Source of the DNA: Candidatus Cybelea sp.
Lineage (GTDB): Bacteria > Vulcanimicrobiota > Vulcanimicrobiia > Vulcanimicrobiales > Vulcanimicrobiaceae
Assembly: GCA_035939175.1 (NCBI GenBank)
Contig: DASZGC010000015.1
Span: 11,261-75,260, forward strand
Direction: 5' to 3'
DNA length: 64,000 nucleotides
Of the stretch, positions 10,473 through 25,277 are shown piece by piece; position 1 is the first letter of the stretch, and each line of letters starts with the position of its first letter. The notes under the pieces were generated by a model. The model did no database searches and was not told the origin of the DNA. It saw only the letters and a program-made list of their open reading frames with translations. A program made the translations under genes and the position numbers.

Positions 10473-11711
10473 CTAATGCGTGTGGGTGAAGTTGCCGACG
10501 CGGGCAAGCGCGCCGATCGACTCGATCGCGCGTCGCATGCCCAGCGGCGACTTCGGCCGCCCGACCGCTTCGAAATAGACGACGGGGTCGATGTTGAGCG
10601 TGCGCGTTTGCACCATAGCCACCGGCGTCGCGCGTAGGAAGGCTTCCATCGCCGCCACCTCCGGCGCGTCGTCGGTGACGCCGGGATGCGTCAAGAGATT
10701 GAGGCTAACGCGCAGCCCGCGCGCAACCGCCATCCGAATCGAGTCGAAGACGTCTGCGAGATCGTAGCCGATCGGCCGGTAGTACGCCGCATAAACCTGG
10801 GGCCGAAACGAGTTGAGACTCACGCGCACGGCCCCAAGGCCCGCGTCGATGCAGCGCTCCAGCGACGTTGGGAGGCTGCCGTTGGTGTTGAGGTTGATCG
10901 TGCCGTTACTCGCGCCTTTGCGGATGCGCTCGATCGCGCGGGCGATCGTCGTGCCACGCAGCAGCGGCTCGCCCTCGCAGCCTTGACCGAACGAAACGAT
11001 GCCGTCGGGCACGCGCTCCAAGTGGTGCAGCGCCACCGCGGCGAGCTCGGCGGCTGCCGCCTCCTCCGCGATCCGCGCCTGCGGCGAAGGGATGCCGGCA
11101 CCGTCTTCCTGCTCGGAGATGCAGCCGATGCAGCGTGCGTTGCACTTCGGCGAAACCGGGAGCGCCGCTTCGCCGCGTTCGAGAAAGACGTTCTGCGCGG
11201 TGAAGCACGCGTATTCGCGCGAGCAGAGCGCGACTTGATGCAGCACGCCGTTTGTGGGATCGGCGCCCAGGCGGCGTTCGATCATACCCTCCAGCTCGCC
11301 ACGCTCGAAGCGACGGGGGCGCCAGTCGTCGCTCTCGTCGGTCTTCATTGCCGCCACATACAGCTCGTCGTCGACGGCGCAGGCAAACGTGTAACCAAAG
11401 AGCGGCAGCGCGGGCGCACCGCGCCCCGCCACGTACGCGGGAACCAGGAGGCGCGTATAACCGGCGGGTAGGGCGACGGCAAACGCCGTGCGCCCGGCCA
11501 CCGGGCCGATCGTCGTCAGCGGATGGCGTCCGGGCAGCATCATCTCCAGCGTGCTTGCCGGAGCGGCAATCAATTCGCGGCGCGCCGCCTCGCGGACGAT
11601 GCCGCCGTCGGCAAGCGGTACGAGCTCTTCGTCGAACGAGATCGAGCCATCGGGCGCGCACCAGACGAGTCCGGCGTGCGCGCGCTCACGAGGCGAGATC
11701 GTCGGCGGCAT
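10473..11711 (-). CDS. Radical SAM protein with an uncharacterised ~175-aa N-terminal domain
   Basis: 412 aa. CxxxCxxC motif CNARCIGC is present, with downstream GQGCEGEPLL, NLNTNG and VRVSLNS blocks typical of the radical SAM core. Confidence 0.75.
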   Translation of the reverse strand: MPPTISPRERAHAGLVWCAPDGSISFDEELVPLADGGIVREAARRELIAAPASTLEMMLPGRHPLTTIGPVAGRTAFAVALPAGYTRLLVPAYVAGRGAPALPLFGYTFACAVDDELYVAAMKTDESDDWRPRRFERGELEGMIERRLGADPTNGVLHQVALCSREYACFTAQNVFLERGEAALPVSPKCNARCIGCISEQEDGAGIPSPQARIAEEAAAAELAAVALHHLERVPDGIVSFGQGCEGEPLLRGTTIARAIERIRKGASNGTINLNTNGSLPTSLERCIDAGLGAVRVSLNSFRPQVYAAYYRPIGYDLADVFDSIRMAVARGLRVSLNLLTHPGVTDDAPEVAAMEAFLRATPVAMVQTRTLNIDPVVYFEAVGRPKSPLGMRRAIESIGALARVGNFTHTH

Positions 11712-12480
11712 CCACTTCCGTATCGAAAACGCGAACCGCGGGCCCGGTGAGATGCGCGTCGCCGGCGCCGTCCCACTCCACCGCCAGCCGTCCGCCGGGA
11801 ACCAGCACCTCGACGGGCGAGCCGCCGATTCCGCTGCGAATCGCGACGGTCGCGCAGGCGACCGCTCCGGTACCGCAGGCCATCGTCAAGCCCACGCCCC
11901 GCTCCCAGTGCCGCACGCGAATCGAGTCTTCGTCCTGCACCGCAGCGACGTGGACGTTGGTGCCGTTGGGAAACGTTGCATCGCGCTGCAGCCGCTCCGC
12001 AGCGATTTCGAGGTCGAGCTCGTCGACGTTCGGACGAAAGAACACGACGTGCGGATTGCCGAGATCGACGAACCACCCACTTCCCAGCGACGCGAGAAAG
12101 ATCTCCTCGATGTGGGGCGTGCCCATCGAGACGCGCACCGCGTACTCGCGCCCGCGCCCGAGGATCTCCGTCGCCACGAGGCCGGCATCGGTCTCGAACG
12201 TGAGGCTCCCTCGCTCGCCGGTCTCGTCGAGCCAACGGGCGGCGCAGCGAATGCCGTTGCCGCACATTTCGGCCTCGCTGCCGTCCGCATTGACGATTCG
12301 CATGCGGGCGTCGGCGAGCGCCGACGATTCGAGGACGATGAGGCCGTCGGCACCGATTCCAGCCCGCCGATCGCACGCCCAGCGTGCAAAGAGCGCGAGA
12401 TTCGCGCTCCGCTTCTTTCTACGATCGAGGATGACGAAATCGTTCCGCGCGCCGTGCATCTTGGTGACGGAGATGCGCAT
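11686..12480 (-). CDS. dapF: Diaminopimelate epimerase
   Basis: 264 aa. Motifs present: MHGARNDFVILD, the catalytic Cys motifs CGNGIRC and ACGTGAVA. Confidence 0.9.
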   Translation of the reverse strand: MRISVTKMHGARNDFVILDRRKKRSANLALFARWACDRRAGIGADGLIVLESSALADARMRIVNADGSEAEMCGNGIRCAARWLDETGERGSLTFETDAGLVATEILGRGREYAVRVSMGTPHIEEIFLASLGSGWFVDLGNPHVVFFRPNVDELDLEIAAERLQRDATFPNGTNVHVAAVQDEDSIRVRHWERGVGLTMACGTGAVACATVAIRSGIGGSPVEVLVPGGRLAVEWDGAGDAHLTGPAVRVFDTEVDAADDLAS

Positions 12481-12489
12481 TGCACTGTG

Positions 12490-13389
12490 CTAGTTCGCAG
12501 ACCACTCGAGTTTCTCCCGTACTACGGATTCGAGCGCGGCGGCGTCGCACCATAGCGCGCCGGGCTCGGAACGGAACCACGCGCGCTGTCTCCGGGCGTA
12601 GCGGCGCGTCGCCCGCTCGAGCGAGGCGCGCAGCTCGTCGGGCGTGCTCCAGCCGCGGAGGTGCGCCAGCGCCTGCGGATAGCCGACGGCGTCGGCAGCG
12701 ACCGCGCCGGCGCCGATGCGCTCGGCCTCCTCCAGCAGGCCGCCGGCCACCATGCGCTCCGTGCGCCGCGCGATGCGCCGGTCGATCTCAGCAAGCGGCA
12801 CGTCGAGAAAGACGAGCTCCGCGTGCAGACCGAGGCTGGCGAGGCTGGGTGCCGGCTGATGCGACGCGACCCGCGGCTCCCCCAACGCGACTTCGAGGGC
12901 TCGCAGCACGCGATAGGTATCCGCGGGGTGAAGCTCGCGCGCTCGCCGGGCGTCGCGCAGCGTCAGCCACTCGTAGAGCACGTCGGGCGGATGGAGCGTA
13001 CCTTCGCGCGCGATCCGCGCGCGAAGGACGTCGTCGTACTGCGGCGCCAGCGTTACGCCGCCGCGCAGCGCGCGAATGTAGAAACCGGTGCCACCGGCGA
13101 CGATCGCGCGCTTGCCGCGCTCGAGGATCTCAAGCACCGCGGCGAGCGCGTCGGCGGCGTAGCGCGCGGCCGAATAGCGCTCCGACGGATCAAGAAAACC
13201 CGTAAGGTGATGCGGCACGCGCGACAGCTGCTCCGGGGTGGGAGCGGCGGTTCCAACCGGCATGCCGTTGTAGATCTGGCGCGAATCCGCCCCCACGATC
13301 TCGCAGCCGTATCGCTGCGCGAGGTCGAGCGCCGCCTCCGTCTTTCCGCTCGCGGTCGCCCCCGCGAGAATGAGGATCCCGTCAGACAC
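12490..13389 (-). CDS. miaA: tRNA dimethylallyltransferase
   Basis: 299 aa. P-loop GATASGKT is present, along with ADSRQIYNGMPVGTAAP and PHHL. Confidence 0.9.
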   Translation of the reverse strand: MSDGILILAGATASGKTEAALDLAQRYGCEIVGADSRQIYNGMPVGTAAPTPEQLSRVPHHLTGFLDPSERYSAARYAADALAAVLEILERGKRAIVAGGTGFYIRALRGGVTLAPQYDDVLRARIAREGTLHPPDVLYEWLTLRDARRARELHPADTYRVLRALEVALGEPRVASHQPAPSLASLGLHAELVFLDVPLAEIDRRIARRTERMVAGGLLEEAERIGAGAVAADAVGYPQALAHLRGWSTPDELRASLERATRRYARRQRAWFRSEPGALWCDAAALESVVREKLEWSAN

Positions 13390-15073
13390 GCCGGAACATG
13401 CGCGCGATCTCGTCGGGACTCAGACGCACCATGGTCGGACGACCGTGCGGACAGTGCATCGGATTGGCGCAGGTTTGCAGCCGTTCGACGAGCGTCGCCA
13501 TCTCCGCCGGCGCGAGCGTTTCCCCCGCGATCGTTACGCTGTGACATGCCAGCGTCGCCCACACGCGCTCGCGTACGTCGCGCTGCTTGGGATCCTCCGT
13601 GAGATCGTCGAGCAGACCGCCGAGGTCGAACGCGCGTCCGCCGTAGCCTCCGGGCGTCGCGACGATGCGATACGTTCGCTCGCCGAACGCTTCGATCTCG
13701 AGGCCGCCCTCGCGCAGCGTCTCGAGCGCGCGGTCGAGCGCCGCGCTGCGCGGCGCATCGAGCTCGACGACGTGCGGCACCAGAAGCGGTTCGCTCGGCC
13801 GGCGCTGTGCCGCCGCCGCGACGATCGCCTCATAGGCGATGCGCTCGTGCGCGGCGTGCTGATCGACCAGCAGCAGCGATTCTCCGTCGCTCGCGAGGAT
13901 GAAGGTGCGGTGGAGCTGCGCCAGCACCGTCAGCCTCGGCGCCGCGCCGCCCTGCGCGAGCTGCGTTTCGTTCGGGAAGAGCGAGATGCGGGGCTCCGCC
14001 GCCGCGAGTTCGCCGTCGCCGGTTGCGGGTTCTCGAGCGAATGCTCCGCTGGTCTGCTCGGCGAAACGCTCGCGCGCATTGTTTTTCAGCGTCGCGGCGA
14101 TGCTGCGGCGCGCGGCCTCAAAGACTTGAGCTGCGTATCGCAGCCGCACGTCGGACTTCGTGGGATGCACGTTGGGATCGACGTGATCGGGCGGAAGATC
14201 GAGAAACAGCACCCCGTATGGATGGCGCCCAAGCATCGTGAAGGTCGCGTAGCCGCTCGTCCACGACGCGCTGAGCAGCGCGCTGCGCACCAAACGGCCA
14301 TTGACGAACAGCATCTGCATCCGGCGATCGGCCCGGTCGCTGCCGGGCGCGCTGATGAACCCGCGCAGACCGCCGCCGAGCATGGTCGCCGAGCCTCCGT
14401 CGAGCGGCAGCAGCGTCTTGGCCGCCTGCGCGCCGAAAACCATCGCCAAGCGGTCGCGCTCGTCGGCGGCTGGGGGCATGATCCACACATCTCGCCCGTC
14501 GTGCCGCAGCGAGAACGCGACGTTCGGATAGGCCAGCGCGAAGCTCGAGAGCCACGAGGAAATGCGGTTGAACTCCGCGTTGGCGCCGCGCAGATACTCG
14601 CGCCGCACGGGAACGCGCTCGAAGAGCGAGGCGGCGCGAACGCGGGTTCCCACCGGTGCCGCGGCCGGCTCGACCGCGCCGATCCGTTCCTCCAAGGCTG
14701 CGACGCGCGCGCCGATCGGCGCACCCGGCCGGCGCGAGAGGATCTCCACCTCCGACACGGCGGCGATCGATGCGAGACCTTCGCCGCGAAATCCCAGCGT
14801 CGCAATCGATTCCAGCTCCGGCGCGGAGCGCAGCTTACTGGTCGCGTGCCGGCGCACGGCCAGCGCCAGCTCGCCGGCGGCGATCCCTTCGCCGTCGTCG
14901 ACGACCTCGATGAGGTCCAAACCACCGCGCTCGACGCTTACCGCGACGCGCGTTGCGCCCGCGTCGACGGCGTTTTCGACCAACTCCTTGACGACCGACG
15001 CCGGTCGTTCGATCACTTCGCCTGCGGCGATTTGACCGATCGTGACCGGATCGAGTTCGGCGATGGGCTGCAT
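13382..15073 (-). CDS. mutL: DNA mismatch repair protein MutL
   Basis: 563 aa. N-terminal GHKL ATPase motifs IAAGEVIERPASVVKELVENAVDAG and DDGEGI are present. The C-terminal dimerisation region contains CPHGRP. Confidence 0.9.
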   Translation of the reverse strand: MQPIAELDPVTIGQIAAGEVIERPASVVKELVENAVDAGATRVAVSVERGGLDLIEVVDDGEGIAAGELALAVRRHATSKLRSAPELESIATLGFRGEGLASIAAVSEVEILSRRPGAPIGARVAALEERIGAVEPAAAPVGTRVRAASLFERVPVRREYLRGANAEFNRISSWLSSFALAYPNVAFSLRHDGRDVWIMPPAADERDRLAMVFGAQAAKTLLPLDGGSATMLGGGLRGFISAPGSDRADRRMQMLFVNGRLVRSALLSASWTSGYATFTMLGRHPYGVLFLDLPPDHVDPNVHPTKSDVRLRYAAQVFEAARRSIAATLKNNARERFAEQTSGAFAREPATGDGELAAAEPRISLFPNETQLAQGGAAPRLTVLAQLHRTFILASDGESLLLVDQHAAHERIAYEAIVAAAAQRRPSEPLLVPHVVELDAPRSAALDRALETLREGGLEIEAFGERTYRIVATPGGYGGRAFDLGGLLDDLTEDPKQRDVRERVWATLACHSVTIAGETLAPAEMATLVERLQTCANPMHCPHGRPTMVRLSPDEIARMFRRV

Positions 15074-15110
15074 GCTACGACCTTCGCGCCGTGCCGCGCG
15101 CTCTCATGGG

Positions 15111-15140
15111 TTGACCCTGCGGCCATGGGCGCAGTATCCT
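15111..15140 (+). promoter_or_regulatory. Sigma70-like promoter for the M-box leader (TTGACC-18 nt-TATCCT)
   Basis: TTGACC at 15111-15116 and TATCCT at 15135-15140. The predicted transcription start falls a few nt before the riboswitch P1 stem. Confidence 0.45.
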
Positions 15141-15150
15141 GGTTGTTGAT

Positions 15151-15311
15151 TCCTCGTTAGGTGAGGCGTCTGCATGAAGAGTTGCCGCTGCCCGGAAAGG
15201 TCGAGAGACCCCAACGGGTAACCAGATCCCGCCGAATCAAGGCGGAATCTAATGCGGCTGTCCTTCTTTACGAAGGTCTAGGTCGTGCAGTGCTAAAGCT
15301 CGACACTGAGG
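15151..15311 (+). promoter_or_regulatory. M-box (ykoK leader) Mg2+-sensing riboswitch aptamer
   Basis: 161 nt, colinear with the B. subtilis mgtE M-box as recalled. Matching blocks are CGUUAGGUGAGGC (15155-15167), CUGcAUGaAGA, GCUGCCCggAAAgGUC, AAcGGGUaACcAGA, UAAUGCgGCUG and CAGUGCUAAAGCUCgAC (15288-15304). P1 is CCUC (15152-15155) pairing with GAGG (15308-15311). Confidence 0.85.
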
Positions 15312-15345
15312 TGCCGCCGCGAACGTTCGCGTGCCGGTTCTGCAA

Positions 15346-15377
15346 CTGTCGATCTGCGAGGATCGGCAGTTTTTTTT
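15346..15377 (+). terminator. Intrinsic terminator (expression platform of the M-box)
   Basis: 9-bp stem CUGUCGAUC / GAUCGGCAG with a 6-nt loop, followed by a run of 8 U. That run is very unusual in this GC-rich DNA. The element sits 30 nt upstream of the ATG. UCGACA (15300-15305) can pair instead with UGUCGA (15347-15352). Confidence 0.8.
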
Positions 15378-15406
15378 CTTCTTCGAAGGGACACGTCTGC
15401 AGGGAG

Positions 15407-17248
15407 ATGCTCGCGGCAATGCTCCTCTCCGCGATTGCAGCGGTGACTGCCAGCGCGCCTTCGCCGTCGCCTTCGCCCGCCTCGCGCTTTGACGCGCGAG
15501 TAAGCGGGTCTAACGTGTTCGTCGATCAAGCGACCGGTGGCCCGGGTACGACGCCGCAAGGCTACGCGTTCGCGCACGGCTCGCCCGCCGCGCCGATGTC
15601 GCCCTACGATTGGCTCGGCAGCGCGCCGGTCACGTCGGGCGTCGCCGGCATCGCCCAGTACGAGTTGACCGGCAGCTATCGCGGGGACGGCTTCGACTTC
15701 GCCGCGACCTTCGGCATCGGCGGCATCAGCGGAAGCACGACCAATGCGCTCTATTGGGGCGAGCCGACGATCGCCAACCTCAACGTTCACGACCTCTCGC
15801 GCATGGTTCCCTACGCCGTCGTCTTTCCAACGCACGCCGGTCAGGACGACGCGACGGTCGGCAGCGCCAACCTGCTCGGGCTCTCGTTTGCCGCGCCCGA
15901 CGATAGCTGGAGGGTGCGTGGCGGCTATCTTGATCTCACCCAGAGCGATCGTTTCGTCTTCAACCCGCCGGCGATCACCAGCGTCACGCCCTCGCTCGGC
16001 CCCTCAACGGCGGAGACACTTGGGCCCGGACTCGCCTCCGTCGACAGGTGGGCGGCAGCTCCGACGTCGTTACCACTGCTCGGCGCCGATGCATACTGGC
16101 ATCGCGGCGGCGCGTCGGTCGAGCTGACCGACGCCCTCTTGCCCTCACTGCCAGGCACGCAGGCCCGCTTGACGATGGGCTCCTTCGTGCTCGATCGGGG
16201 CGACGCCGGCCGATTCTCGGTGCAGGTCGCGCACGTCGCGACGAGCGGCGCGCCGATCGCAACCACGACGTTCTTCGGCGCCGATGGGGAGCTGCACGAA
16301 GGCCCGCAGGGGCGCCTCTTTACCAGCACGCTGGCCGATCAAGATCAAACGATCGCCGGCGCGCGAGCATTCTTTCATCCGCTGCGCGGCTGGGATGCGC
16401 TAGCGGAGATCGGTCGCGCGTGGTACGACGCGGGCGTGGTCGCCTATCCGGGCACGTCGCACTTCGGCAACTACGAGCATTTCAGCATCGCCCGCCATCT
16501 GGGCGACGACGTCGCCACGCTCGAATATCATCGTTTCGACCCGACGTACGCCACCGTGATTCTCCCGTACGGCATTCCTGAGAACGTATGGAGCATTGCG
16601 TGGTCGTGGCCCGGCGTCTGGCTCAAGTCGAACTACCAGCTCGTCGACAACTCCACGATCGGCGCAAATCGCGCGGGATACCATCTCCGCTACGACCATC
16701 CCGGCAAGCGCGTTGAGATTCACGCGTCGTACGGCGATTGGCGCCAACTGCTTCCGGAGACCGAGGCCAACGCCTCGCAGGTCGGGTTCGTCGACGGATT
16801 CTTCTTATTGCAGAAGAACGGCTTCGGCACGCTGGGCCGCGATCGGCAGGCCGGCCTCTACGTGGCGTGGCACGCGCTGCGCGACGACGTCGCCGTCGAC
16901 GCCGTCGACGATTTTCTCAGCCGTCCGGCCGATGCGGGCCAAGCGATCGATACCGTCTCGACGCGCGCGCCGCAGACGATCTTCACCTGGACGCATCACT
17001 TCAGCCGCCGTCTGCTCGCGGCAGCCGGCTACGGCCGTTACGCGCTGGCCGGCACCTGGGCGACAAAGCCGGTCGACGGGATCTACGGCGTGGCATTCGC
17101 CGGCGTGCAGATCGCGACCACGGCGAATACCGCGCTGCTGGTGCAAGCCCGGCGCTACGCGCTCGTGGGGCTTCCCTCGATCCCCTTTGGCCCGTCGCCG
17201 GCGATGCACGGCACCGCGCTGATCGTCGACCAGAGGATATCGCTGTGA
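15407..17248 (+). CDS. Uncharacterised 613-aa secreted protein, outer-membrane barrel-like
   Basis: Start taken at ATG 15407 (MLAAMLLSAIAAVTASA|PSPSPSP); ATG 15419 is also possible. There are no Cys and no recognisable domain. Many amphipathic beta-like strands are present: AGLYVAWHAL, IFTWTHHFS, AAAGYGRYAL, GVAFAGVQIA. The stop overlaps the next start (GTGA). Confidence 0.65.
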   Translation: MLAAMLLSAIAAVTASAPSPSPSPASRFDARVSGSNVFVDQATGGPGTTPQGYAFAHGSPAAPMSPYDWLGSAPVTSGVAGIAQYELTGSYRGDGFDFAATFGIGGISGSTTNALYWGEPTIANLNVHDLSRMVPYAVVFPTHAGQDDATVGSANLLGLSFAAPDDSWRVRGGYLDLTQSDRFVFNPPAITSVTPSLGPSTAETLGPGLASVDRWAAAPTSLPLLGADAYWHRGGASVELTDALLPSLPGTQARLTMGSFVLDRGDAGRFSVQVAHVATSGAPIATTTFFGADGELHEGPQGRLFTSTLADQDQTIAGARAFFHPLRGWDALAEIGRAWYDAGVVAYPGTSHFGNYEHFSIARHLGDDVATLEYHRFDPTYATVILPYGIPENVWSIAWSWPGVWLKSNYQLVDNSTIGANRAGYHLRYDHPGKRVEIHASYGDWRQLLPETEANASQVGFVDGFFLLQKNGFGTLGRDRQAGLYVAWHALRDDVAVDAVDDFLSRPADAGQAIDTVSTRAPQTIFTWTHHFSRRLLAAAGYGRYALAGTWATKPVDGIYGVAFAGVQIATTANTALLVQARRYALVGLPSIPFGPSPAMHGTALIVDQRISL

Positions 17249-18558
17249 GCGCCGCCGCGCCGGTTCGTCGGCCGAGCCTCTGGCGGTCGATCGTGATGTT
17301 TTTCTCGATCGTCGGCCCGGGCTTGATCACGGCCAACGCCGACAACGACGTCGGCGGCATCTGGACCTATTCGCAGGCCGGCGCGCAGTTCGGCTACTCG
17401 ATGCTCTGGATCCTGGTACCGGTCACGATTGCACTCATCGTCGTCCAGGAGATGTGCGCGCGCATGGGTGCGGTCACCGGCAAGGGCCTCGCCGATCTGA
17501 TTCGCGAGAACTTCGGCGTCAAAGTGACGTTTTGGTGCCTTCTGCTCTTCGTGCTGGGCGACGTCGGCAACACGGCGACGGAGTTTGCCGGCGTCGCCTC
17601 CTCGGCGCCGATCCTCGGCGGTTACATCCATGTACCGAGCCCCGAAGCATTCAAGATCGCGCTGGTTGCGGGAGCGGCGCTCTTCGTTTTCCTCACCGTT
17701 ACGCGCGGCAATGCCAAGGTGATCGAGCGCGTCTTCTTCGCGTTCTGTTTCGTATATATCGCCTACGTGATCAGCGCGTTCGCGGTGCGCCCCGATTGGG
17801 GTGAGGTGCTGCGTCAGAGCGTCGTTCCCCACTTCCAAGCGTCGAAAGCCTACTTGCTGATGGTCATCGCGATCATCGGCACGACGATCTCGCCGTGGAT
17901 GCAGTTCTACATCCAGGCCGCCGTCGTCGACAAAGGCGTCCGCGAAGAGGATTACGGCTACTCGCGGATCGACGTCGTGACCGGCGGGATTTGGACCGAC
18001 GTCATCGCCTATTTCATCATCGTTGCCTGCGCGGCCACGATCTTCGTTCACAACCTGCACGCCTCGCACGCGATCGCCGTCACCAACGACGTCGGCGACG
18101 TGGCCGCCGCCCTAACGCCGCTGGCCGGTAAGTTCGCCGGACTGCTCTTTGCGCTCGGACTGCTCAACGCTGCCGTCTTCACGGCCTCGATCCTTCCGCT
18201 CTCAACCGCCTACTACGTGTGCGAAGCGTTCGGCTTCGAACGCGGCGTCGATCATCGCTTCTCCGAGGCGCCGATCTTCTACAGCTTCTACCTCGCGCTG
18301 ATTCTCATCGGCGCCGGCGTCGTGATCGTTCCGGGCGCCCCGCTCGGCGGCATCATCTTCTACTCGCAGGTGCTCAACGGCATGCTGCTGCCGATCGTGC
18401 TGGTGCTCATGTTGCTGCTCATCAACAACAAGCGGCTGATGGGCAAATGGACGAACAGCCGCGCCTTCAACGTCATCGCCTGGGCAACGGTCATCATCGT
18501 CGGCGCGCTGACGCTCGTCTCGACGGCGCAGATCGTCTTCCCGTCGCTCGGCAGTTAG
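17245..18558 (+). CDS. NRAMP-family divalent-cation transporter with non-canonical metal site (NRAMP-related Mg2+ transporter candidate)
   Basis: GTG at 17245; 437 aa; NRAMP fold indicated by GPGLITA...QAGAQFGYSMLW. TM1 reads D-V-G-G (nt 17347-17358) where MntH has DPGN. TM6 reads S-P-W (nt 17890-17898) where MntH has MPH. Confidence 0.85.
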   Translation: MSAAAPVRRPSLWRSIVMFFSIVGPGLITANADNDVGGIWTYSQAGAQFGYSMLWILVPVTIALIVVQEMCARMGAVTGKGLADLIRENFGVKVTFWCLLLFVLGDVGNTATEFAGVASSAPILGGYIHVPSPEAFKIALVAGAALFVFLTVTRGNAKVIERVFFAFCFVYIAYVISAFAVRPDWGEVLRQSVVPHFQASKAYLLMVIAIIGTTISPWMQFYIQAAVVDKGVREEDYGYSRIDVVTGGIWTDVIAYFIIVACAATIFVHNLHASHAIAVTNDVGDVAAALTPLAGKFAGLLFALGLLNAAVFTASILPLSTAYYVCEAFGFERGVDHRFSEAPIFYSFYLALILIGAGVVIVPGAPLGGIIFYSQVLNGMLLPIVLVLMLLLINNKRLMGKWTNSRAFNVIAWATVIIVGALTLVSTAQIVFPSLGS

Positions 18559-18563
18559 CAGCC

Positions 18564-19685
18564 TCAGGGTGACAACGGCGCGAGGTCCAAGCCGATTACG
18601 AGTGCCGTCTTCGTTCCCGGTTTGACCGGCGCGGCGAAGGTACGCGCGAGCAGCGTGGCCGCGGGCGATGCGCCGATCACGACGCTCTTCGGTTTCGCGC
18701 GTTCGTCGACGAATGTGGGCACGTTCCAGCCCGCACCGCGCAGCGTGCCGACCAGCGTGCCGTCGAATGCCGTGTTGCCGGTGGCGTTGGCAACGAGCAC
18801 TTCGTCCTGCGGCGGGTCCTTGCGGGCGAAGAGGAGCGCTCCGATCGCCTTGGCCCACCGAACATCGGCGAAGACGACCGACGCATCTCCCACCCAGCCG
18901 GCCTTACTGGGGAGCGTGAACGAGCGGACGTCATCAGCGGGAATGTTGCGGTAGATCGCCAGCAGCGAGACGAGCTGCGCGTTGCTCAAGGTCGTGTTGA
19001 CGTTCCTTCGCGCGAGCGCCACGATCGCCGGCAGCTTCGCCCACTGCTGCGGTTGGCTGACGCGGTCCATCATCAGCTCGAGTACGCGCCGCTGGCGGCC
19101 CACGCGCCCGAAATCCGACGCGGCATCGTGGCGAAAGCGCACGTACCCGGCGACCTGGTCGCCGTCGAGATGCTGCTGCCCCTGCCGCAGGTGGATGTGC
19201 AGGCCGCCGCTGGCGTCGTCGTAATCCATATCCTCGTCGACGTCGACGTCGAGGCCGCCCATTGCGTCGACGATTGCCGCGGCACCTTCGGGCTGCACCG
19301 CGACGATGGCGTCGACGGGCACCCCGCCGAGCAGCGAGGCAACCACGCGGCCAGTCTCGTGCGCCCCCCCGTACGCGTATGCCGCATTGACCTTCATGTA
19401 ACCGTGCGGCGGAACGTTCACCCAGGTGTCGCGCGGTATCGAAACGAGCGTCGCGATCCGCCGCCCGGCATCGAGATGCGCGAGCATGATCGTGTCGGTC
19501 GTCGCCTCGTCGGCCTGAAATCCCAGAATCAGCAGGTTGAGCTTCACGTCCCCGAACGAGCGGCGCGCGGTCTGCGCCACGATCTGCCGGCGCACCGGTT
19601 CGCGCAGTCCAACGTATGCCGCGACGAGCGCCACCAGCACCGCGCCGGTCAGCGCTGCGATGAGCAGCCGAGTCTTGTTCAACAC
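18564..19685 (-). CDS. LytR-CpsA-Psr (LCP) family protein with a LytR_C-like C-terminal domain
   Basis: 373 aa with GTG start and GGAGGA RBS 6 nt upstream. One N-terminal TM helix. LCP block LLILGFQADEATTDTIMLAHLD...LVSIPRDTWV is present. Confidence 0.85.
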   Translation of the reverse strand: MLNKTRLLIAALTGAVLVALVAAYVGLREPVRRQIVAQTARRSFGDVKLNLLILGFQADEATTDTIMLAHLDAGRRIATLVSIPRDTWVNVPPHGYMKVNAAYAYGGAHETGRVVASLLGGVPVDAIVAVQPEGAAAIVDAMGGLDVDVDEDMDYDDASGGLHIHLRQGQQHLDGDQVAGYVRFRHDAASDFGRVGRQRRVLELMMDRVSQPQQWAKLPAIVALARRNVNTTLSNAQLVSLLAIYRNIPADDVRSFTLPSKAGWVGDASVVFADVRWAKAIGALLFARKDPPQDEVLVANATGNTAFDGTLVGTLRGAGWNVPTFVDERAKPKSVVIGASPAATLLARTFAAPVKPGTKTALVIGLDLAPLSP

Positions 19686-19697
19686 GTAGAGTCCTCC

Positions 19698-19718
19698 AAA
19701 AAACGCGCGACGGCGCGC
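19698..19718 (-). terminator. Probable intrinsic terminator after the mutS-linked membrane gene
   Basis: Read on the minus strand: GCGCG-CCGU-CGCGC hairpin (5 GC pairs), then G and a U6 run. It lies between the stop at 19752 and the LCP gene RBS. Confidence 0.45.
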
Positions 19719-19751
19719 AAGGTTATGCGCCCAGAATGCGGGGCGCTCGGA

Positions 19752-20357
19752 CTAACCCTGGAGGACGGGCGGTCCCCGCTCGCCGATGCGGCAGAGCACG
19801 GGAACGAGGTGCACGATGCGCTGGTCGGGGCGTCGTCGAAGCGAGAGCGGGCGACCGCCTTGCGCGCGCAACGTGGCGAGCGCGCGTACCAGCCGGATCA
19901 CCCGCAGCGCCGTCGCCGCCAGGCGCGGCGCCGAGCGCGCGAACCAGAGCGTCAATGCGGCGCCGAAGAGCGCGTGAACGCCAAGACTAAAACCGGTGGG
20001 ACCGCCGAGCCACACCGCCGGTCCGAGCAGATGTCCAAATACGGCCAGCTGTTCCGCGCTCTCCATGGCAAAGAGCGCGACCAATTGCAAGGCCAAGACC
20101 GCGGGGATCAGCACCGCGGCGTTCCGCGGCAGCGCACGGCCGGCCAGCAGCGCGTTCGCGCGGCGTACGCAGTAGAGCACCAGCATCGCCACGCCCGCTA
20201 CCAATGCGGGAAGAACGTCGAGATTGCTGCGATCGGTGAACGTCCCGGGCCCAAAGCAGCCGGCGTTCGAGACGAACTCGACGAGCGGATCCGCAAATGC
20301 CGCCGCGATCACGGCGACCGCCGCGCAAAAGCCCAAGCGGATCGAGAGACGTTTCAC
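19752..20357 (-). CDS. Hypothetical 201-aa polytopic membrane protein translationally coupled to mutS
   Basis: GTG at 20357 overlaps the mutS TGA (GTGA). Translation VKRLSIRLGFCAAVAVIAAAF...LIPAVLALQLVALFAM...GVHALFGAALTLWF gives about 5 TM helices. Only this C-terminal part of ORF 19752..22877 looks protein-like. Confidence 0.55.
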   Translation of the reverse strand: MKRLSIRLGFCAAVAVIAAAFADPLVEFVSNAGCFGPGTFTDRSNLDVLPALVAGVAMLVLYCVRRANALLAGRALPRNAAVLIPAVLALQLVALFAMESAEQLAVFGHLLGPAVWLGGPTGFSLGVHALFGAALTLWFARSAPRLAATALRVIRLVRALATLRAQGGRPLSLRRRPDQRIVHLVPVLCRIGERGPPVLQG

Positions 20358-22807
20358 CGCAGGAACGAGAGCTGCCGCTGCGGCGGCGGTCCTTTGGGCA
20401 TCTTCGCCTTCGGCGGCACGCGGGTCTCGAGGTCGGCCTCGCCCGAGAGCGCGTCGGCGATCTCTTGCGCGCGCTCGATCACCGCGCTCGGTAATCCCGC
20501 CATCCGCGCGACCTGGATCCCGAACGAACGCGACGAGCTTCCCGGCTGCACGCGATGCGAGAAGACGGGTGCGCCGTCGCGCGCCGTGTTCTCGACGGCC
20601 GTGATGTGATAGTTTGCGACCAGGCTCGAATGCGCGGCTAGCGAGCACAGCTCGTGGAAATGCGTCGCAAAGAGCACCAGCGGCGCCTGCTCCTGGAGGC
20701 CAAGCAGAAACTCGCAGATGGCCTGCGCGATCGCCAGGCCGTCCAGCGTGCCCGTCCCACGGCCCACCTCGTCGATCAGCAGCAGCGAGCGCGGCGTGCT
20801 GCGGCGCAGGATGTTTGCGGCCTCGGCCATCTCCATGTAGAACGTCGACTGTCCCGACGCCAGATCGTCGCCGGCGCCGATGCGGGTGAAGATCCGGTCG
20901 ATCGCGCCGAGTCGCATCGCTTTCGCCGGAACGAACGAGCCGATTTGCGCCATGATCGCCAGCAGGCCGGCCTGGCGCAGATAGGTCGACTTGCCGCCCA
21001 TGTTCGGCCCCGTCAACAGGATGAAGCGGTGGTCGCCGGCGCTCAGCTGCAGGTCGTTGGGCACGAAGTGCGCGTGCAGCATGGCCTCCATCACCGGATG
21101 GCGCCCCTCCTCGATCGTGACGACGCTTTCGTCGACGAATTCGGGCCGCACGTAACCGCGTTCCGCGGCGCACTGCGCGAGCGCGGCGAGCGCGTCGATC
21201 TGCGCGATCGCGCACGCGGCCTCGGAGAGCGCGCCGGCGCGCGCGGCAATGCGTTCGACCAGCGCCTCGAAGAGCTGACGTTCCAGCCGCTCCTGACGCG
21301 TCTGCGCCGTCGAGATCGCCAGCTCCAGCTCCTTGAGCTCCGGAGTCACGTAACGCTCGCCGGTGGTTAGCGTCTGCTTGCGAACGTAATCGGCCGGCAC
21401 GGCGTCGGCCTGGCTCTTCGGTACTTCGATCGCATAACCGAAGGCGCTCGCGTACTTTACGCGGAGCGTTTTGATACCGGTGCGCTCGCGCTCGCGAAGC
21501 TCCAGCTCGGAGAGCCTCGTGCGCGCGTCGGTGCGCAAAGCGACGCACTCGGCCAGCTCGGCGTCGGCCTGCGGCCGGATCGCGCCGCCGTCGCCGAGCT
21601 GGGCCGGCGGGTCCTCGACGAGCGTTTGCACCAGGTCGGCGAGCACGTCGCCGAAATCTTCCACCCGCTCGAGCAGCGTGGCCACCTCCGGCACCGCGGT
21701 CTCGCGCAGCGGCTCGAAAATCTCCAGCGTGCGGCGCAACGATGCCAGATCGCGCGGCCCGGCGCGGCGGAAGCGCACCTTCTGCGCGATGCGCTCCAGG
21801 TCGAACATGCCGCGCAGAATTTCGCGCAGCGAGACGCGCCGCGTGTGCTGCGCGAGCATCGCCGCGACGACCTCTTGACGCTCTCCGATCGCCGCGGCGT
21901 CGATCAGGGGCGCGAGGATCCAGCGCGCGAGCATGCGCGAGGCCATCGCGGTTGCACAGACGTCCAAGGTTGCGAGCAGCGTCGCCTTGGGATTCTGGCC
22001 TTGCGCGCGGGTCAGCTCGAGGTGTTTGCGCGTCGAGGGATCGAGCACCAGGAATTCTTGGCGCCGGTAGAGCTGCGCCTCGCCGAGCCCGCGTTCGCCG
22101 TTGGTGACGCCGGTGCGCCGCACGAACGCGCTCAGCGCGTCGAGCGCGCGATGGATCGCCAGCGACTCCTCCATTGAGAATCCGTCGAACGCGCGGCGGT
22201 CGCGCGTTTCGACCAAGTTTAGTGCCGGCGTGGCCAAGCGCGCGCCGGCGGCCTCGACCGCCGTCGCCAGCGCGGCGCGCATCGCCGGCGGCACGTCGGC
22301 GACGATCTCCGCGGGCCCGATGCGTGCCAGCTCGGCCAGCAGCTCGTCGTACCCGCTCTCGCCCCCCAGCGCGGTTGCGGCCGCGTAACTCGTCGACACG
22401 TCGGTGTAGGCGATCGCGAACGTTTCGCCTTCGAGGGCCGTCGCCGCGAGGTAGTTGTTCTGCTTGCCGTCGAGCAGCTGCTCCTCGATCAGCGTTCCCG
22501 GCGTGACCAAACGCACGACGTCGCGCCGCACCAACCGGTTTGGCTGCGGGATCTCCAGCTGCTCCGCGAGCGCGACGATGAAGCGCTGCTGTACCAGCCG
22601 CGCGAGGTAATTGCTCAGCGCGTGATGGGGAACGCCGGCCATCGCCACGCGCTGGCCGGCGCCGGCCTCCTTGCTCGTCAACGCGATCTGCAGCGCGCGC
22701 GCCAGCGTCTCGGCGTCGTCGCCGTAGGCTTCGTAGAAGTCGCCGACGCGCGAGAGCAGGATCGCCTCCGGATGTTTGGTTTTCATTCCGAAGTACTGCT
22801 CGAGCAT
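20354..22807 (-). CDS. mutS: DNA mismatch repair protein MutS
   Basis: 817 aa. Motifs present: MLEQYFGMKTKHPEAILLSRVGDFYE, Walker A TGPNMGGKST, DEVGRGT. Confidence 0.95.
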   Translation of the reverse strand: MLEQYFGMKTKHPEAILLSRVGDFYEAYGDDAETLARALQIALTSKEAGAGQRVAMAGVPHHALSNYLARLVQQRFIVALAEQLEIPQPNRLVRRDVVRLVTPGTLIEEQLLDGKQNNYLAATALEGETFAIAYTDVSTSYAAATALGGESGYDELLAELARIGPAEIVADVPPAMRAALATAVEAAGARLATPALNLVETRDRRAFDGFSMEESLAIHRALDALSAFVRRTGVTNGERGLGEAQLYRRQEFLVLDPSTRKHLELTRAQGQNPKATLLATLDVCATAMASRMLARWILAPLIDAAAIGERQEVVAAMLAQHTRRVSLREILRGMFDLERIAQKVRFRRAGPRDLASLRRTLEIFEPLRETAVPEVATLLERVEDFGDVLADLVQTLVEDPPAQLGDGGAIRPQADAELAECVALRTDARTRLSELELRERERTGIKTLRVKYASAFGYAIEVPKSQADAVPADYVRKQTLTTGERYVTPELKELELAISTAQTRQERLERQLFEALVERIAARAGALSEAACAIAQIDALAALAQCAAERGYVRPEFVDESVVTIEEGRHPVMEAMLHAHFVPNDLQLSAGDHRFILLTGPNMGGKSTYLRQAGLLAIMAQIGSFVPAKAMRLGAIDRIFTRIGAGDDLASGQSTFYMEMAEAANILRRSTPRSLLLIDEVGRGTGTLDGLAIAQAICEFLLGLQEQAPLVLFATHFHELCSLAAHSSLVANYHITAVENTARDGAPVFSHRVQPGSSSRSFGIQVARMAGLPSAVIERAQEIADALSGEADLETRVPPKAKMPKGPPPQRQLSFLR

Positions 22808-22827
22808 CGGCGAATATTTCGGCAGCT

Positions 22828-23859
22828 TCAGTCGCCTCCGCTACCGAGCGCCTTGGAGATCGCGCGCACGTACGCACCTTTGGGACGCCCGGTTCCGTCG
22901 GGCGGCTGTTGGGGATTGTCGAGGTCGAGGTCCCAGATCATGATGCCGCGATAACCCAGGCGGCGCACGTCATTTCCGTAACCCGAGGCGTCGTTCGGCG
23001 TGATTACCACGCCGTCGTCGGCTTTGCCGATCATCAGTCCGAGCGCGATCTTATTTTTGGGCAGCGTCCCGCCGCCCGAGAGCGCGATGTTGGCGAACTG
23101 CGCCAGCACGTCGAGGCGACAATCGTCGCGAGATCCCTGGCGGTAGCTGCAGTTGGGGTGGTTCGATGGTTTCCAGCCGTACTGATCGTAGGCCATCACG
23201 TTGAGGTAGTCGATGTCGGCGGCCGTCTGCGCGACGATCGGAATGTCCTCGCCTTGATGGCCGCTGCCCGCCTGCGGATCCGCACCGTCGATGAACGCGT
23301 CGAACGAGATGACGGCCGAGGGGAAAGCGCCGCGTACCGCTTGCAGCACGTCGATGAGCTGCTGCTGGCCGTTGACGGGTATCACTTCGTCGTCGAAATC
23401 GAAACCGTCATAGATCTTGGGATTCGCCTTGACGTACGCCTGGAGATTCTGTGAGAACAGGTTGGGATCGGTGATCTCGAAGCCCGAGGTCGCGCCGCCG
23501 AACGAGAGCAGCACCTTCCCGCCGTGCGCGTGGATGTGGTTGGCTCCGGGCCGCAGCGGATAGGTGTTCTGCGGCGGCGAGATGTCGTTGCTGTCGGCGA
23601 TGCTGAACGCGACGTCGACGCTCGTCACGCTCGTGGGCACGCTTCCCAAGCGCGAGAACGCATCGTTACGGTTCGTATCCGACCACGACTCCCAGAAGCC
23701 GACGAACTCGCTGGAGCCCGACGACGACGCCGGCTTCACGGCCGGGCCGGCTGCTGGTGCCGCGGGATTCTGCGCCGGCACGCTGCCGGAAGCGCCGTTG
23801 CACCCGCTTGTCGCCAACGCGGCGGTCAGAGCCCAAAAAAACGCGGCGCGCCGTGGCAT
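22828..23859 (-). CDS. Glycoside hydrolase family 18 (chitinase / endo-beta-N-acetylglucosaminidase-like) lipoprotein
   Basis: Start set at ATG 23859 (MPRRAAFFWALTAALATSGC, a lipobox). The GH18 catalytic motif DxxDxDxE is present as DGFDFDDE, along with MAYDQYGW. Confidence 0.75.
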   Translation of the reverse strand: MPRRAAFFWALTAALATSGCNGASGSVPAQNPAAPAAGPAVKPASSSGSSEFVGFWESWSDTNRNDAFSRLGSVPTSVTSVDVAFSIADSNDISPPQNTYPLRPGANHIHAHGGKVLLSFGGATSGFEITDPNLFSQNLQAYVKANPKIYDGFDFDDEVIPVNGQQQLIDVLQAVRGAFPSAVISFDAFIDGADPQAGSGHQGEDIPIVAQTAADIDYLNVMAYDQYGWKPSNHPNCSYRQGSRDDCRLDVLAQFANIALSGGGTLPKNKIALGLMIGKADDGVVITPNDASGYGNDVRRLGYRGIMIWDLDLDNPQQPPDGTGRPKGAYVRAISKALGSGGD

Positions 23860-23866
23860 GCCGGCG

Positions 23867-25240
23867 CTACGACGCGACCGGCTCCGCCGCCCCGGCGAAC
23901 GTTGCGGCGCGCGCGACGATGCTGCCGGTGCAGCCCCATACGTGCGCGCTCGCGATGCGCACGTCGAGCCACGGCGTGCGCGCATCGACGTCGACCGCGG
24001 GCTTGGGAGCGACGACCGTCACGTTGTCCGGCGCTTTGGAGGTGAGTTTGGCGGGGTCTTTCTTCGAGTCGCCGCAGACGAGCACGCGCAATACTTTGCC
24101 GACGTGCCGTTCGTGATAGGCGCGAGTCGCCTCGTTCTGCGCGGCGAAGAGGCGGCGGAAGCGCTCCAACGCGACCTCTTTGGGCACTTGCGGCCAGTGG
24201 GCCGCAGGGGTGCCGCGCCGGATCGAATAGACGAACACGAAGGCGTTGGCGAAGACGCCGCTCTGCACGTAGCGTAACGTCGCGTCGAAATCCTCGTCGG
24301 TTTCACCGGGAAAGCCGACGATGATGTCGGTCGTGATCGCGCACTGCGGGATGCGGCGGCGAATCCCCTGGGCGATCGCGTCGAAGCGTTCCAGCGTGTA
24401 CTTGCGATTCATGCGGCGCAGCATCGCGTCACTTCCGGATTGCAGCGGCAGGTGCACCCGCGGATTGAGCTGCGGAAGCGATGCCAGATCGTCGAGGATC
24501 TTCTCGGTAAAGTCCTTGGGATGCGGCGAGATGAAACCGAGTCGTTCGAACCCGGACAGCGCCGCGATCTCGCGGCAGAGGTCGCCGAAATCTGCGCCGG
24601 TGGCGGGATCCTTCCACGCGTTGACCGTCTGGCCGACGAGCACGATCTCGCGCGCGCCCTGCGCGAGGCGCCCACGCGTCTCCTCGAGGATCTCGCGGGT
24701 GGGGCGGTGGTCGAAGCGTCCGCGCACGTGCGGCACGATGCAGAAAGTGCAGTAGTACGAGCAGCCGCGCTGCACCGTCACGAACGCCCGCAGGTGCGTA
24801 AAGGCATCGGCAACGCCGTCGGCGGTGCCCCCGAGCGGCTCGAGCAAGTGGCGTTCGTCGGAGAAGTCGACCTCTTCGAAGCCCGGCTCCCACGAGGCCA
24901 ACCGTTCGCCAAGCGCTCCCAGCTCGCGCGTTCCGAAGACCGCATCGACGTGCGGCGCCAGCCGCTGCATCCGGTCGCGGTCCTGCTCGGCCAGGCACCC
25001 GGTAACGACCAGACGGAGACTCGGGTCGGCGCGCTTGAGCGCGTTGAGGTGGTGGATTCTGCCGTACGCGCGGCGTTCGGCGTTGTCGCGCACCGTGCAC
25101 GTGTTGAGCACGACCACGTTGGCCGCTTCGGGCGCCGTGGCGACGGTGTACCCCGCGGAGATCGCGCGCTCGGCGATCTGCCGTGAGTCGGCTTCGTTCA
25201 TCTGGCAACCGAACGTCTCGATATAGATACTGGGCGGCAC
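23867..25240 (-). CDS. miaB: tRNA-2-methylthio-N6-dimethylallyladenosine synthase
   Basis: Start set at GTG 25240 (VPPSIYIETFGCQMNEADS). Radical SAM motif CSYYCTFC is present, followed by a TRAM-like C-terminus. 457 aa. Confidence 0.9.
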   Translation of the reverse strand: MPPSIYIETFGCQMNEADSRQIAERAISAGYTVATAPEAANVVVLNTCTVRDNAERRAYGRIHHLNALKRADPSLRLVVTGCLAEQDRDRMQRLAPHVDAVFGTRELGALGERLASWEPGFEEVDFSDERHLLEPLGGTADGVADAFTHLRAFVTVQRGCSYYCTFCIVPHVRGRFDHRPTREILEETRGRLAQGAREIVLVGQTVNAWKDPATGADFGDLCREIAALSGFERLGFISPHPKDFTEKILDDLASLPQLNPRVHLPLQSGSDAMLRRMNRKYTLERFDAIAQGIRRRIPQCAITTDIIVGFPGETDEDFDATLRYVQSGVFANAFVFVYSIRRGTPAAHWPQVPKEVALERFRRLFAAQNEATRAYHERHVGKVLRVLVCGDSKKDPAKLTSKAPDNVTVVAPKPAVDVDARTPWLDVRIASAHVWGCTGSIVARAATFAGAAEPVAS

Positions 25241-25277
25241 GTGGGTCCCGTTCGCTCTCGGTGAGAAAGGAACTGCC

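Follow-up and report, generated by a model that had tools for sequence, protein, structure and literature searches.

An M-box riboswitch upstream of a predicted beta-barrel and NRMT-type transporter operon in Candidatus Cybelea

Introduction

Where does a gene begin when an open reading frame (ORF) runs without interruption through what looks like a regulatory RNA, and which genes would such an RNA control? The question is raised by a stretch of 64,000 nucleotides (nt) from contig DASZGC010000015.1 of Candidatus Cybelea sp. (hereafter the window, in which all positions are counted), where a reading made from the letters alone had proposed a complete Mg2+ riboswitch of the M-box class with its own promoter, a terminator/antiterminator platform and OFF logic. 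The element lies ahead of two genes, gene 1 encoding a 613-aa exported protein predicted to be an outer-membrane beta-barrel, and gene 2 encoding a transporter of the NRAMP family that resembles the NRMT (Mg2+) type. The computational analysis reported here supports the core of this sequence-only reading by a covariance-model score, by covariation among 45 related leaders, by near-isoenergetic alternative folds and by the presence of the NRMT gene, and it is very probable that the element is an M-box with its own promoter, a terminator/antiterminator platform and OFF logic controlling the barrel-NRMT operon.

A complete M-box aptamer

When the 64 kilobases (kb) of the window were scanned with cmscan against all 4227 Rfam families, RF00380 (M-box) was matched at 15146-15317 on the plus strand with 124.4 bits, compared with a gathering score of 44, and an expectation value (E) of 2e-27, and no other family was found by these models. 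The match covers positions 1-169 of the 169 in the model, and E becomes 1.6e-29 if the search is restricted to 15000-15500, a segment in which a permissive Rfam rescan gave nothing beyond the M-box. The search with the M-box covariance model, which had been suggested as a check on the sequence-only reading, is therefore significant, and the aptamer placed by that reading at 15151-15311 is the same element less 5-6 nt at each end. The conserved blocks that it had named (CGUUAGGUGAGGC, GCUGCCCGGAAAGGUC, AACGGGUAACCAGA, UAAUGCGGCUG and CAGUGCUAAAGCUCGAC) are readable in the sequence and align to the RF00380 consensus, as does the CCUC/GAGG closure of helix P1, and only five positions of the whole alignment are non-canonical. 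The secondary structure is that of the family, i.e. a long P1/P2 closing helix around a multi-helix core with conserved internal loops, and the RNAalifold consensus of 20 diverse members of the clade has the M-box architecture with the same helices (48 pairs, 8 of them compensatory). Judged by its sequence, the window element is a genuine and complete copy of the M-box, an ordinary element of a known kind, and every defining feature of RF00380 that is open to computation is present. Among relatives the distal hairpin of the aptamer (window 15261-15279; alignment A4 columns 117-195) ranges from ~15 to ~80 nt, and two loci (L021 and L041) have large insertions in it, the remaining aptamer being almost invariant.

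An intergenic element with its own promoter

The sequence-only reading had described the element as hidden in an annotated ORF. The frame does exist, as a mechanical six-frame ORF at 15161..17248 on the plus strand, and the window carries no annotation. This uninterrupted ORF is what would favour an account in which the M-box is a functionless, decaying relic, or in which the ORF is truly coding and the resemblance incidental, and the same account could draw on two close relatives (L018 and L014) that keep the operon and have lost or disrupted the M-box. On the other hand, 124 bits over the full model are not attainable by chance (E 2e-27), and the aptamer, the promoter blocks and the terminator have all stayed intact and conserved among species that share only 45-74% identity in their barrel proteins. 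Over the 82 codons at the beginning of the ORF (15161-15406) the G+C content at third codon positions (GC3) is 0.60, compared with 0.83 in 15407-17248 in the same frame, and both homologues and public gene calls begin past the terminator: the call for the identical protein (P0001) starts at ATG 15419, that for a 94%-identical orthologue (P0002) at the equivalent of ATG 15407, and in all of 14 aligned homologues a hydrophobic, signal-like N-terminus lies at or after the 15407 start region. A relic or an incidental likeness is accordingly given hardly any credence. The drop in GC3, the public starts and the homologous N-termini together indicate that the extension 15161-15406 is non-coding read-through, which places the riboswitch between genes and not inside one, within the 333-nt intergenic region that separates the start of gene 1 from mutL (13382-15073, minus strand, identified by Pfam), which is divergent from the riboswitch operon. 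Recognition of the riboswitch also settles where the downstream gene really begins.

The promoter TTGACC-18-TATCCT of the sequence-only reading was recovered upstream of the aptamer by a consensus scan, in which 15111-15140 is the sole promoter-like site in 14800-15700 (mean in shuffled sequence, 0.1). Two blocks, GGGTTGAC and GTATCCT/GTATTCT, lie immediately 5' of the aptamer, at constant positions, in ~40 relatives, and the spacer between them varies freely. From its match to the consensus the promoter appears to be of the sigma-70 type, and we infer that transcription starts at ~15147-15149.

The terminator/antiterminator platform

The consensus scan returned one terminator-like site on the plus strand, an intrinsic terminator with a 12-pair stem (15344-15355/15360-15371), a GCGA loop and a T8 tract at 15370-15377; the stem count takes in G-U pairs and two A-U pairs built from the first two U's. 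A hairpin of 9 base pairs followed by U8 (15346-15377) had been described earlier, of which the hairpin and the U-tract stand and the stem has to be lengthened to 12 pairs from 15344. The same reading had noted that UCGACA (15300-15305) could pair alternatively with UGUCGA (15347-15352). The two segments are exact complements, and their pairing forms in the transcript folded to 15358. If the transcript is folded only to 15343, it contains the aptamer with a closed P1; if it is folded to 15358, when the 3' arm of the terminator is not yet present, AGCUCGACACUGAGG (15297-15311, in the 3' strand of P1) pairs with 15340-15355 and encloses a spacer hairpin (15313-15338), which is also present in relatives with variable sequence and length. 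Folding with and without a constraint on P1, a further check proposed at the outset, gave -98.0 kcal/mol for the OFF state (P1 and terminator), -93.6 for the ON state (antiterminator) and -97.9 for the unconstrained minimum free energy (MFE) structure. In the folding model the OFF and ON states are near-isoenergetic, as a switch needs, these energies being a consistency check and not proof.

In 45 distinct leaders aligned from the 3' strand of P1 through the U-tract, the 8-pair core of the terminator is paired in 97.7% of cells, compared with 21-65% when partners are slid, four of its pairs have changed on both sides, and 0 of 500 shuffles reach the observed covariation score, although the leaders are related sequences and shuffle counts are not probabilities. 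The outer helix of the antiterminator is paired in 98.8% of cells. Within it the pair between alignment columns 11 and 71 covaries (AU 33, GC 8, GU 3), and column 71 also covaries with column 97, its partner in the terminator (UA 27, UG 9, CG 8); column 11 is unpaired in the Rfam structure of P1 and hence free of the P1 constraint. That column 71 tracks two alternative partners is the signature to be expected of a mutually exclusive switch. An aptamer strand competing with a terminator, as the expression platform of RF00380 has it, is found here by computation.

An M-box could also act via translation initiation, Rho or RNA stability, with the hairpin and U-tract as a constitutive attenuator or an irrelevant feature, and the GGAG directly before ATG 15407, together with the short leader past the terminator, would suit such a mechanism. 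The 5' arm of the terminator is, though, the exact complement of the 3' strand of P1, this three-strand relation is conserved and covarying in the 45 leaders, the ribosome-binding region is free of predicted pairing in both folds, and a terminator is the route taken by most M-box riboswitches (PMC4072509), so that control by any of these other means is considered very unlikely.

A further pairing may take part in the switch. The segment CGAGGA (15357-15362), which extends from the terminator loop into the beginning of the 3' arm, hardly varies among the 45 leaders, unlike the adjoining stem positions; terminator loops are not usually so constant. Its complement UCCUCG is found at 15151-15156, in the 5' strand of P1, and in the ON-state fold 15147-15157 is paired with 15356-15365. 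The model suggests a four-strand exchange, in which the OFF state would combine P1 5'/P1 3' with terminator 5'/terminator 3', and the ON state P1 3'/terminator 5' with P1 5'/terminator 3'. Because CGAGGA and UCCUCG are both invariant, the exchange is beyond the reach of covariation, and a function of this pairing is put forward by inference only.

The NRMT-type transporter

Gene 2 begins at GTG 17245 and overlaps the stop of gene 1 by 4 nt (GTGA, 17245-17248), with AGAGGA six bases upstream, and this overlap suggests translational coupling of the barrel and NRMT genes. The product matches the Pfam family Nramp PF01566 (1.4e-93, profile positions 2-357 of 357), as expected of the SLC11/NRAMP fold. 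Its closest solved relative is 7QIA, with 1.5e-93 and 317.6 bits over residues 14-430; 7QIA is EleNRMT, an NRAMP-related Mg2+ transporter of Eggerthella lenta, and the signature of such NRMT proteins is DxxG in helix 1 and TxxA/T in helix 6, replacing DxxN and AxxM (PMC8806188). Gene 2 has DVGG, which fits DxxG, and TTIS in helix 6, where the Thr is present, the Met is absent and the last residue is Ser; EleNRMT residues D55, G58, T224 and Q379 are conserved, and the Trp that replaces the first His of the proton path is also kept.

NRAMP proteins are classically Mn2+/Fe2+ importers, as the Pfam and NCBIfam names have it, and a true M-box fold might respond to another divalent cation, e.g. Mn2+, with the NRAMP gene importing that metal. 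EleNRMT also transports Mn2+, the terminal Ser departs from the NRMT signature, and the possibility has been raised for M-box variants (PMC4072509). Against it, gene 2 reaches only 137.6 bits, compared with the NCBIfam MntH cut-off of 430, and its best MntH match (5.5e-26, 95 bits) is far behind that to EleNRMT. It has neither the Met nor the Asn that mark a transition-metal site, the aptamer fits the consensus over the whole RF00380 model, and the M-box/Nramp-related pairs that were assayed responded to and transported Mg2+ (PMC4072509). Another metal is considered very improbable here, and the product of gene 2 is probably an NRMT-type transporter, a Mg2+ importer rather than a Mn2+/Fe2+ importer; the M-box in turn marks this NRAMP homologue as such. 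A gene of Mg2+ transporter type thus lies downstream on the same strand and in the same operon, which is the genomic context of RF00380. The sequence-only reading had described the M-box as a switch placed before Mg2+ importers. This holds for the operon and not for the gene immediately downstream, since the barrel comes first.

Proposed mechanism and points against it

From these elements the following sequence of events can be proposed (coordinates in Table 1). A transcript would start from the promoter at 15111-15140, and its first ~170 nt would fold into the aptamer (15146-15317). At high cytoplasmic Mg2+ the aptamer would compact and hold the 3' strand of P1 (15290-15313) against the 5' strand (15150-15170); with P1 locked in this way, the downstream terminator (15344-15377) could fold and RNA polymerase would stop near 15377, before the genes. 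At low Mg2+, P1 would not be stabilised, 15297-15311 would pair with 15340-15355 around the spacer hairpin and block the terminator, and transcription would proceed into the two-gene operon, i.e. the barrel gene (15407-17248) and the gene of the NRMT-type importer (17245-18558). The identity of the aptamer, the terminator, the mutually exclusive pairing with its conservation and the identities of the genes come directly from the computations, and Mg2+ as the ligand and the OFF direction would follow from the published behaviour of the family.

Several points weigh against this interpretation. P1 is absent from the unconstrained MFE fold of the whole leader (15146-15385), and the thermodynamic model alone does not prove a switch. 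Such an absence is expected for an aptamer that relies on Mg2+-mediated tertiary contacts, and the unconstrained MFE was rejected as a test of the aptamer for this dependence of the M-box; the covariance model, truncated-transcript folds and constrained folds were used instead. Most antiterminator positions are invariant, which leaves covariation to little more than a single pair of the outer helix, and the inner helix is paired less regularly, in 83% of cells of the 45 leaders. The last residue of the NRMT signature in gene 2 is Ser, not Ala or Thr (A227 in EleNRMT). In a subclade comprising L045, L051 and L052 the two promoter blocks are only ~8 nt apart, which makes the -35/-10 assignment appear not secure everywhere among the relatives. 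Lastly, Mg2+ binding, termination and expression are, for this locus, predictions.

The short promoter spacing was seen more widely, as a TTGACA block ~8 nt from a TAnnnT block in L045, L051, L052, L054, L057 and L070, compared with 16-18 nt in the main clade, and the -35/-10 assignment is therefore not transferable to these species.

Table 1. Features of the riboswitch operon in the window.
Feature	Position	Strand	Basis
-35-like hexamer TTGACC	15111..15116	+	consensus match; GGGTTGAC block conserved there in ~40 leaders
-10-like hexamer TATCCT	15135..15140	+	consensus match; GTATCCT/GTATTCT block in relatives
M-box (RF00380) aptamer, full length	15146..15317	+	covariance model; same architecture in 20 relatives
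P1/P2-base helix, 5' strand UUCCUCGUUAGGUGAGGCGUC	15150..15170	+	structure line of covariance-model alignment; constrained fold
P1 3' strand, with switching segment GCUCGACACUGAGG (15298-15311)	15290..15313	+	covariance-model alignment; constrained folds
Antiterminator 5' strand, overlapping P1 3' strand	15297..15311	+	truncated-transcript fold; conservation in 45 leaders
Spacer hairpin between aptamer and terminator, capping the antiterminator in the ON fold	15313..15338	+	folds
Antiterminator 3' strand, same as terminator 5' arm	15340..15355	+	folds; comparison of 45 leaders
Intrinsic terminator: stem, GCGA loop and U8 (15370-15377)	15344..15377	+	consensus scan; folds; 8-pair core in 45 leaders
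CGAGGA, terminator loop and start of 3' arm	15357..15362	+	near-invariant columns; complementary to UCCUCG 15151-15156
Gene 1, 613-aa exported protein, predicted outer-membrane beta-barrel; alternative start ATG 15419	15407..17248	+	homologues; AlphaFold2 model; starts of P0001/P0002
Gene 2, NRAMP-family transporter, NRMT (Mg2+) type	17245..18558	+	Pfam Nramp; similarity to 7QIA

Relation to known systems

The founding M-box, the mgtE (ykoK) leader of Bacillus subtilis, shares with the window element its aptamer family, the full RF00380 model being matched, and its kind of platform, in which terminator formation is prevented by a strand otherwise tied up in the Mg2+-compacted aptamer (PMC4072509); the logic is also the same, Mg2+ import being repressed when Mg2+ is plentiful. 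The window differs in its host, which belongs to a high-G+C, Gram-negative-type uncultured phylum (Eremiobacterota/Vulcanimicrobiota) and not to the Firmicutes, and in the genes controlled, a beta-barrel and NRMT instead of MgtE. Its terminator loop CGAGGA is conserved and complements the 5' strand of P1, possibly a further difference. Closer in gene content are the Ca_c0685 and Ca_c3329 units of Clostridium acetobutylicum, where an M-box is likewise found upstream of an Nramp-related Mg2+ transporter as a terminator-type OFF switch (PMC4072509); there, however, NrmT directly follows the riboswitch, whereas here the 613-aa barrel gene intervenes, overlapping NRMT by 4 nt. With EleNRMT (7QIA; PMC8806188), its best solved relative, gene 2 shares the four residues and the Trp named above and differs in the replacement of A227 by Ser (TTIS versus TTIA). 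The mgtA leader of Salmonella enterica, a Mg2+-sensing 5' UTR with the leader ORF mgtL, similarly limits elongation into a Mg2+ importer gene to low Mg2+ (PMC4072509); it is, though, an unrelated RNA with a distinct mechanism, does not belong to RF00380 and has no sequence or structural similarity to the window element.

The riboswitch itself adds little that is new. M-box control of NRMT-type transporters is established, both the response to Mg2+ and the transport of Mg2+ by NrmT having been shown in published work, in which the reported M-box-NrmT cases are mostly from Clostridia and Deltaproteobacteria (PMC4072509). In the literature searched, no link of an M-box to porins or other outer-membrane barrels, or of riboswitches to Eremiobacterota, was found, which is not proof of absence; M-box riboswitches and porins are named together in one paper, a general review of bacterial regulatory RNAs. 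What may be modestly new is an uncharacterised barrel family that appears recurrently under M-box control, in three gene orders and in genomes almost all labelled Eremiobacterota.

The exported beta-barrel protein

For the product of gene 1, neither Pfam nor NCBIfam returned a match up to E 10, and nothing of use came from a permissive Pfam rescan of this barrel and of one homologue (P0114), whose precomputed tag PF27998 is absent from the Pfam version used. At E <= 0.001 the protein has 568 homologues. Those with names belong to Eremiobacterota (Candidatus Cybelea, Baltobacteraceae, Aquilonibacter), apart from two under other labels of metagenome-assembled genomes (MAGs), and each of the 80 barrel loci that were retrieved is from Eremiobacterota or from a differently labelled MAG in which the same locus is present. 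Read from the sequence alignment, members of the family have signal-like hydrophobic N-termini followed by a Pro/Ser-rich linker, and C-termini of the form ...VDQRISL/I/F. An AlphaFold2 model of gene 1, built on a 14-sequence alignment, is all-beta with ~24 long strands and a predicted template modelling score (pTM) of 0.62; the predicted local distance difference test (pLDDT) is ~75-85 in the strands, and loops are poorly resolved. Outer-membrane barrels (porins, Occ channels, ushers, AlgE, LptD, TonB-dependent receptors) make up almost all of the PDB entries listed by Foldseek, and the remaining ones are barrel-containing complexes (LamB in 8xcj, SlpA in S-layer entries). Assignment to a specific barrel family was attempted from these matches and abandoned, as template modelling (TM) scores are only 0.2-0.42. 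A signal-like N-terminus, a modelled all-beta barrel and a hydrophobic or aromatic end of the C-terminal strand, as in the outer-membrane barrel class, are nevertheless seen in gene 1, which is predicted to encode an exported beta-barrel and probably an outer-membrane protein. In the sole cultured member of Eremiobacterota the cell envelope is of the usual Gram-negative kind and includes an outer membrane (PMC9758169). No second copy of the barrel or of NRAMP was found in the window, a single weak tblastn match at 62931-62984 being spurious.

The recurrence of M-box control in three gene orders argues that the barrel belongs to the response to Mg2+ limitation, and Mg2+ limitation would then be a functional handle on a large, conserved hypothetical barrel family in Eremiobacterota, a phylum with one cultured representative. 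Pseudomonas OprH is induced by Mg2+ limitation, and by analogy the barrel could be an envelope-stabilising protein instead of a Mg2+ channel. If the barrel is indeed a Mg2+-related outer-membrane channel or stabiliser, a riboswitch would have under its control both a protein of the outer membrane and the importer that goes with it in the inner membrane.

As separate observations, two loci (L044 and L046) have barrel paralogues (~53% identity) without an M-box, flanked on one side by an ORF with an N-terminus like that of OYE-type flavin oxidoreductases and on the other by ORFs resembling the electron-transfer flavoprotein EtfB/EtfA, as judged by eye from the N-termini. Such M-box-free paralogues in unrelated neighbourhoods imply that the barrel family is not exclusively linked to Mg2+.

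The element in related loci

The 80 loci were fetched via the barrel protein family, and 76 of them are evaluable. In 19 diverse loci an Rfam scan found full-length M-boxes (115-140 bits) upstream of the barrel gene and on its strand in nine, and an nhmmer profile made from the ten Rfam-reported hits (these nine loci and the window) was used to locate M-boxes in all 80; in the 19 loci scanned by both methods, presence and absence are identical. An M-box lies upstream of the barrel gene in 49 of the 76 evaluable loci. The three gene orders are M-box > barrel > NRMT, as in the window (39 loci), M-box > NRAMP > barrel (5 loci) and M-box > barrel with no NRAMP seen (5 loci); the barrel-NRMT pair with the M-box lost is found in one locus (L018), no M-box is present within the 3-kb flank in 26, and four are not evaluable.

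Certain loci depart from the common arrangement. L018 (2690-3060) keeps the barrel-NRMT operon, the upstream mutL and a second conserved leader block that is described below, and has lost the M-box entirely, while L014 (2540-2700) keeps the operon and the second leader block with only a fragment of the M-box; both could be informative as natural ‘deletion mutants’. The inverted order is found in L045, L051, L052, L054 and L070, in which the M-box is followed by a small ORF, NRAMP and the barrel. The NRAMP that adjoins the barrel in L054, L070 and L049 is only ~36% identical to the NRMT of the window, and L049 is without an M-box within the flank; this low identity in L054 and L070 means that a second NRAMP lineage is also M-box-linked.

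A second leader block and a small ORF in relatives

Most loci of the M-box > barrel > NRMT type have ~370 nt between the M-box terminator and the barrel gene, and this interval holds a second conserved non-coding block, AAGGGGGUGAU..CCAUGGACGACGGACC...GGCUCGCGAUGAGCC...CGGCGCGG...AGGAGGU..CGUGUCAUGAAG, followed by a conserved ORF of ~46 codons, MK..LA.LL...HDD.LRANQ....F.(Y/F)WR.LV. The two occur together in L002 (2694-2978) and also in L003-L017, L022-L028, L031-L038, L043, L045, L051, L052, L054, L057, L060, L062, L065, L070, L076 and L077; they are absent from the window and from the loci most closely related to it (L001, L019-L021, L029, L039-L041). The block of L002 has no Rfam match even at E <= 1. 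An RNAalifold consensus of 26 copies contains a hairpin with compensatory changes and a long-range helix of CAUGGACGACG with CGUGUCAUG, which is predicted to cover the start codon of the small ORF. The first AUG of the block, after a strong Shine-Dalgarno-like GGGGGUGAU, opens a possible leader peptide MDDGPS(S)R, and beyond these residues the frame is not conserved. The block may be a candidate regulatory element, and a more novel one than the riboswitch of the window.

Weak but consistently placed tblastn matches to the small ORF were also obtained upstream of M-box-free barrel paralogues, in L046 (2795-2863), L047 (2788-2856), L048 (2711-2797), L050 (2788-2862), L053 (2711-2797) and L064 (2710-2796), and the pairing of small ORF and barrel seems to hold across the family whether or not the riboswitch is present.

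These features suggest that in the relatives the second leader element and the ~46-codon ORF form a further layer of operon control. They also enter a broader proposal, which is tentative and rated somewhat on the doubtful side, that the 613-aa barrel is an outer-membrane channel induced by Mg2+ starvation and working with the inner-membrane NRMT, so that one riboswitch would control Mg2+ uptake across both membranes.

Genomic neighbourhood

A LytR-CpsA-Psr gene (18564-19685, minus strand, identified by Pfam) is convergent with the operon and ends 5 nt past the NRMT stop (18558), a gap too short to hold a separate terminator. The riboswitch operon lies within a cluster of housekeeping genes (window 10473-25369), in which dapF-like (11686-12480), miaA-like (12490-13389), mutS-like (20354-22807) and miaB-like (23867-25369) genes, all on the minus strand, were recognised by eye from the ORF translations.

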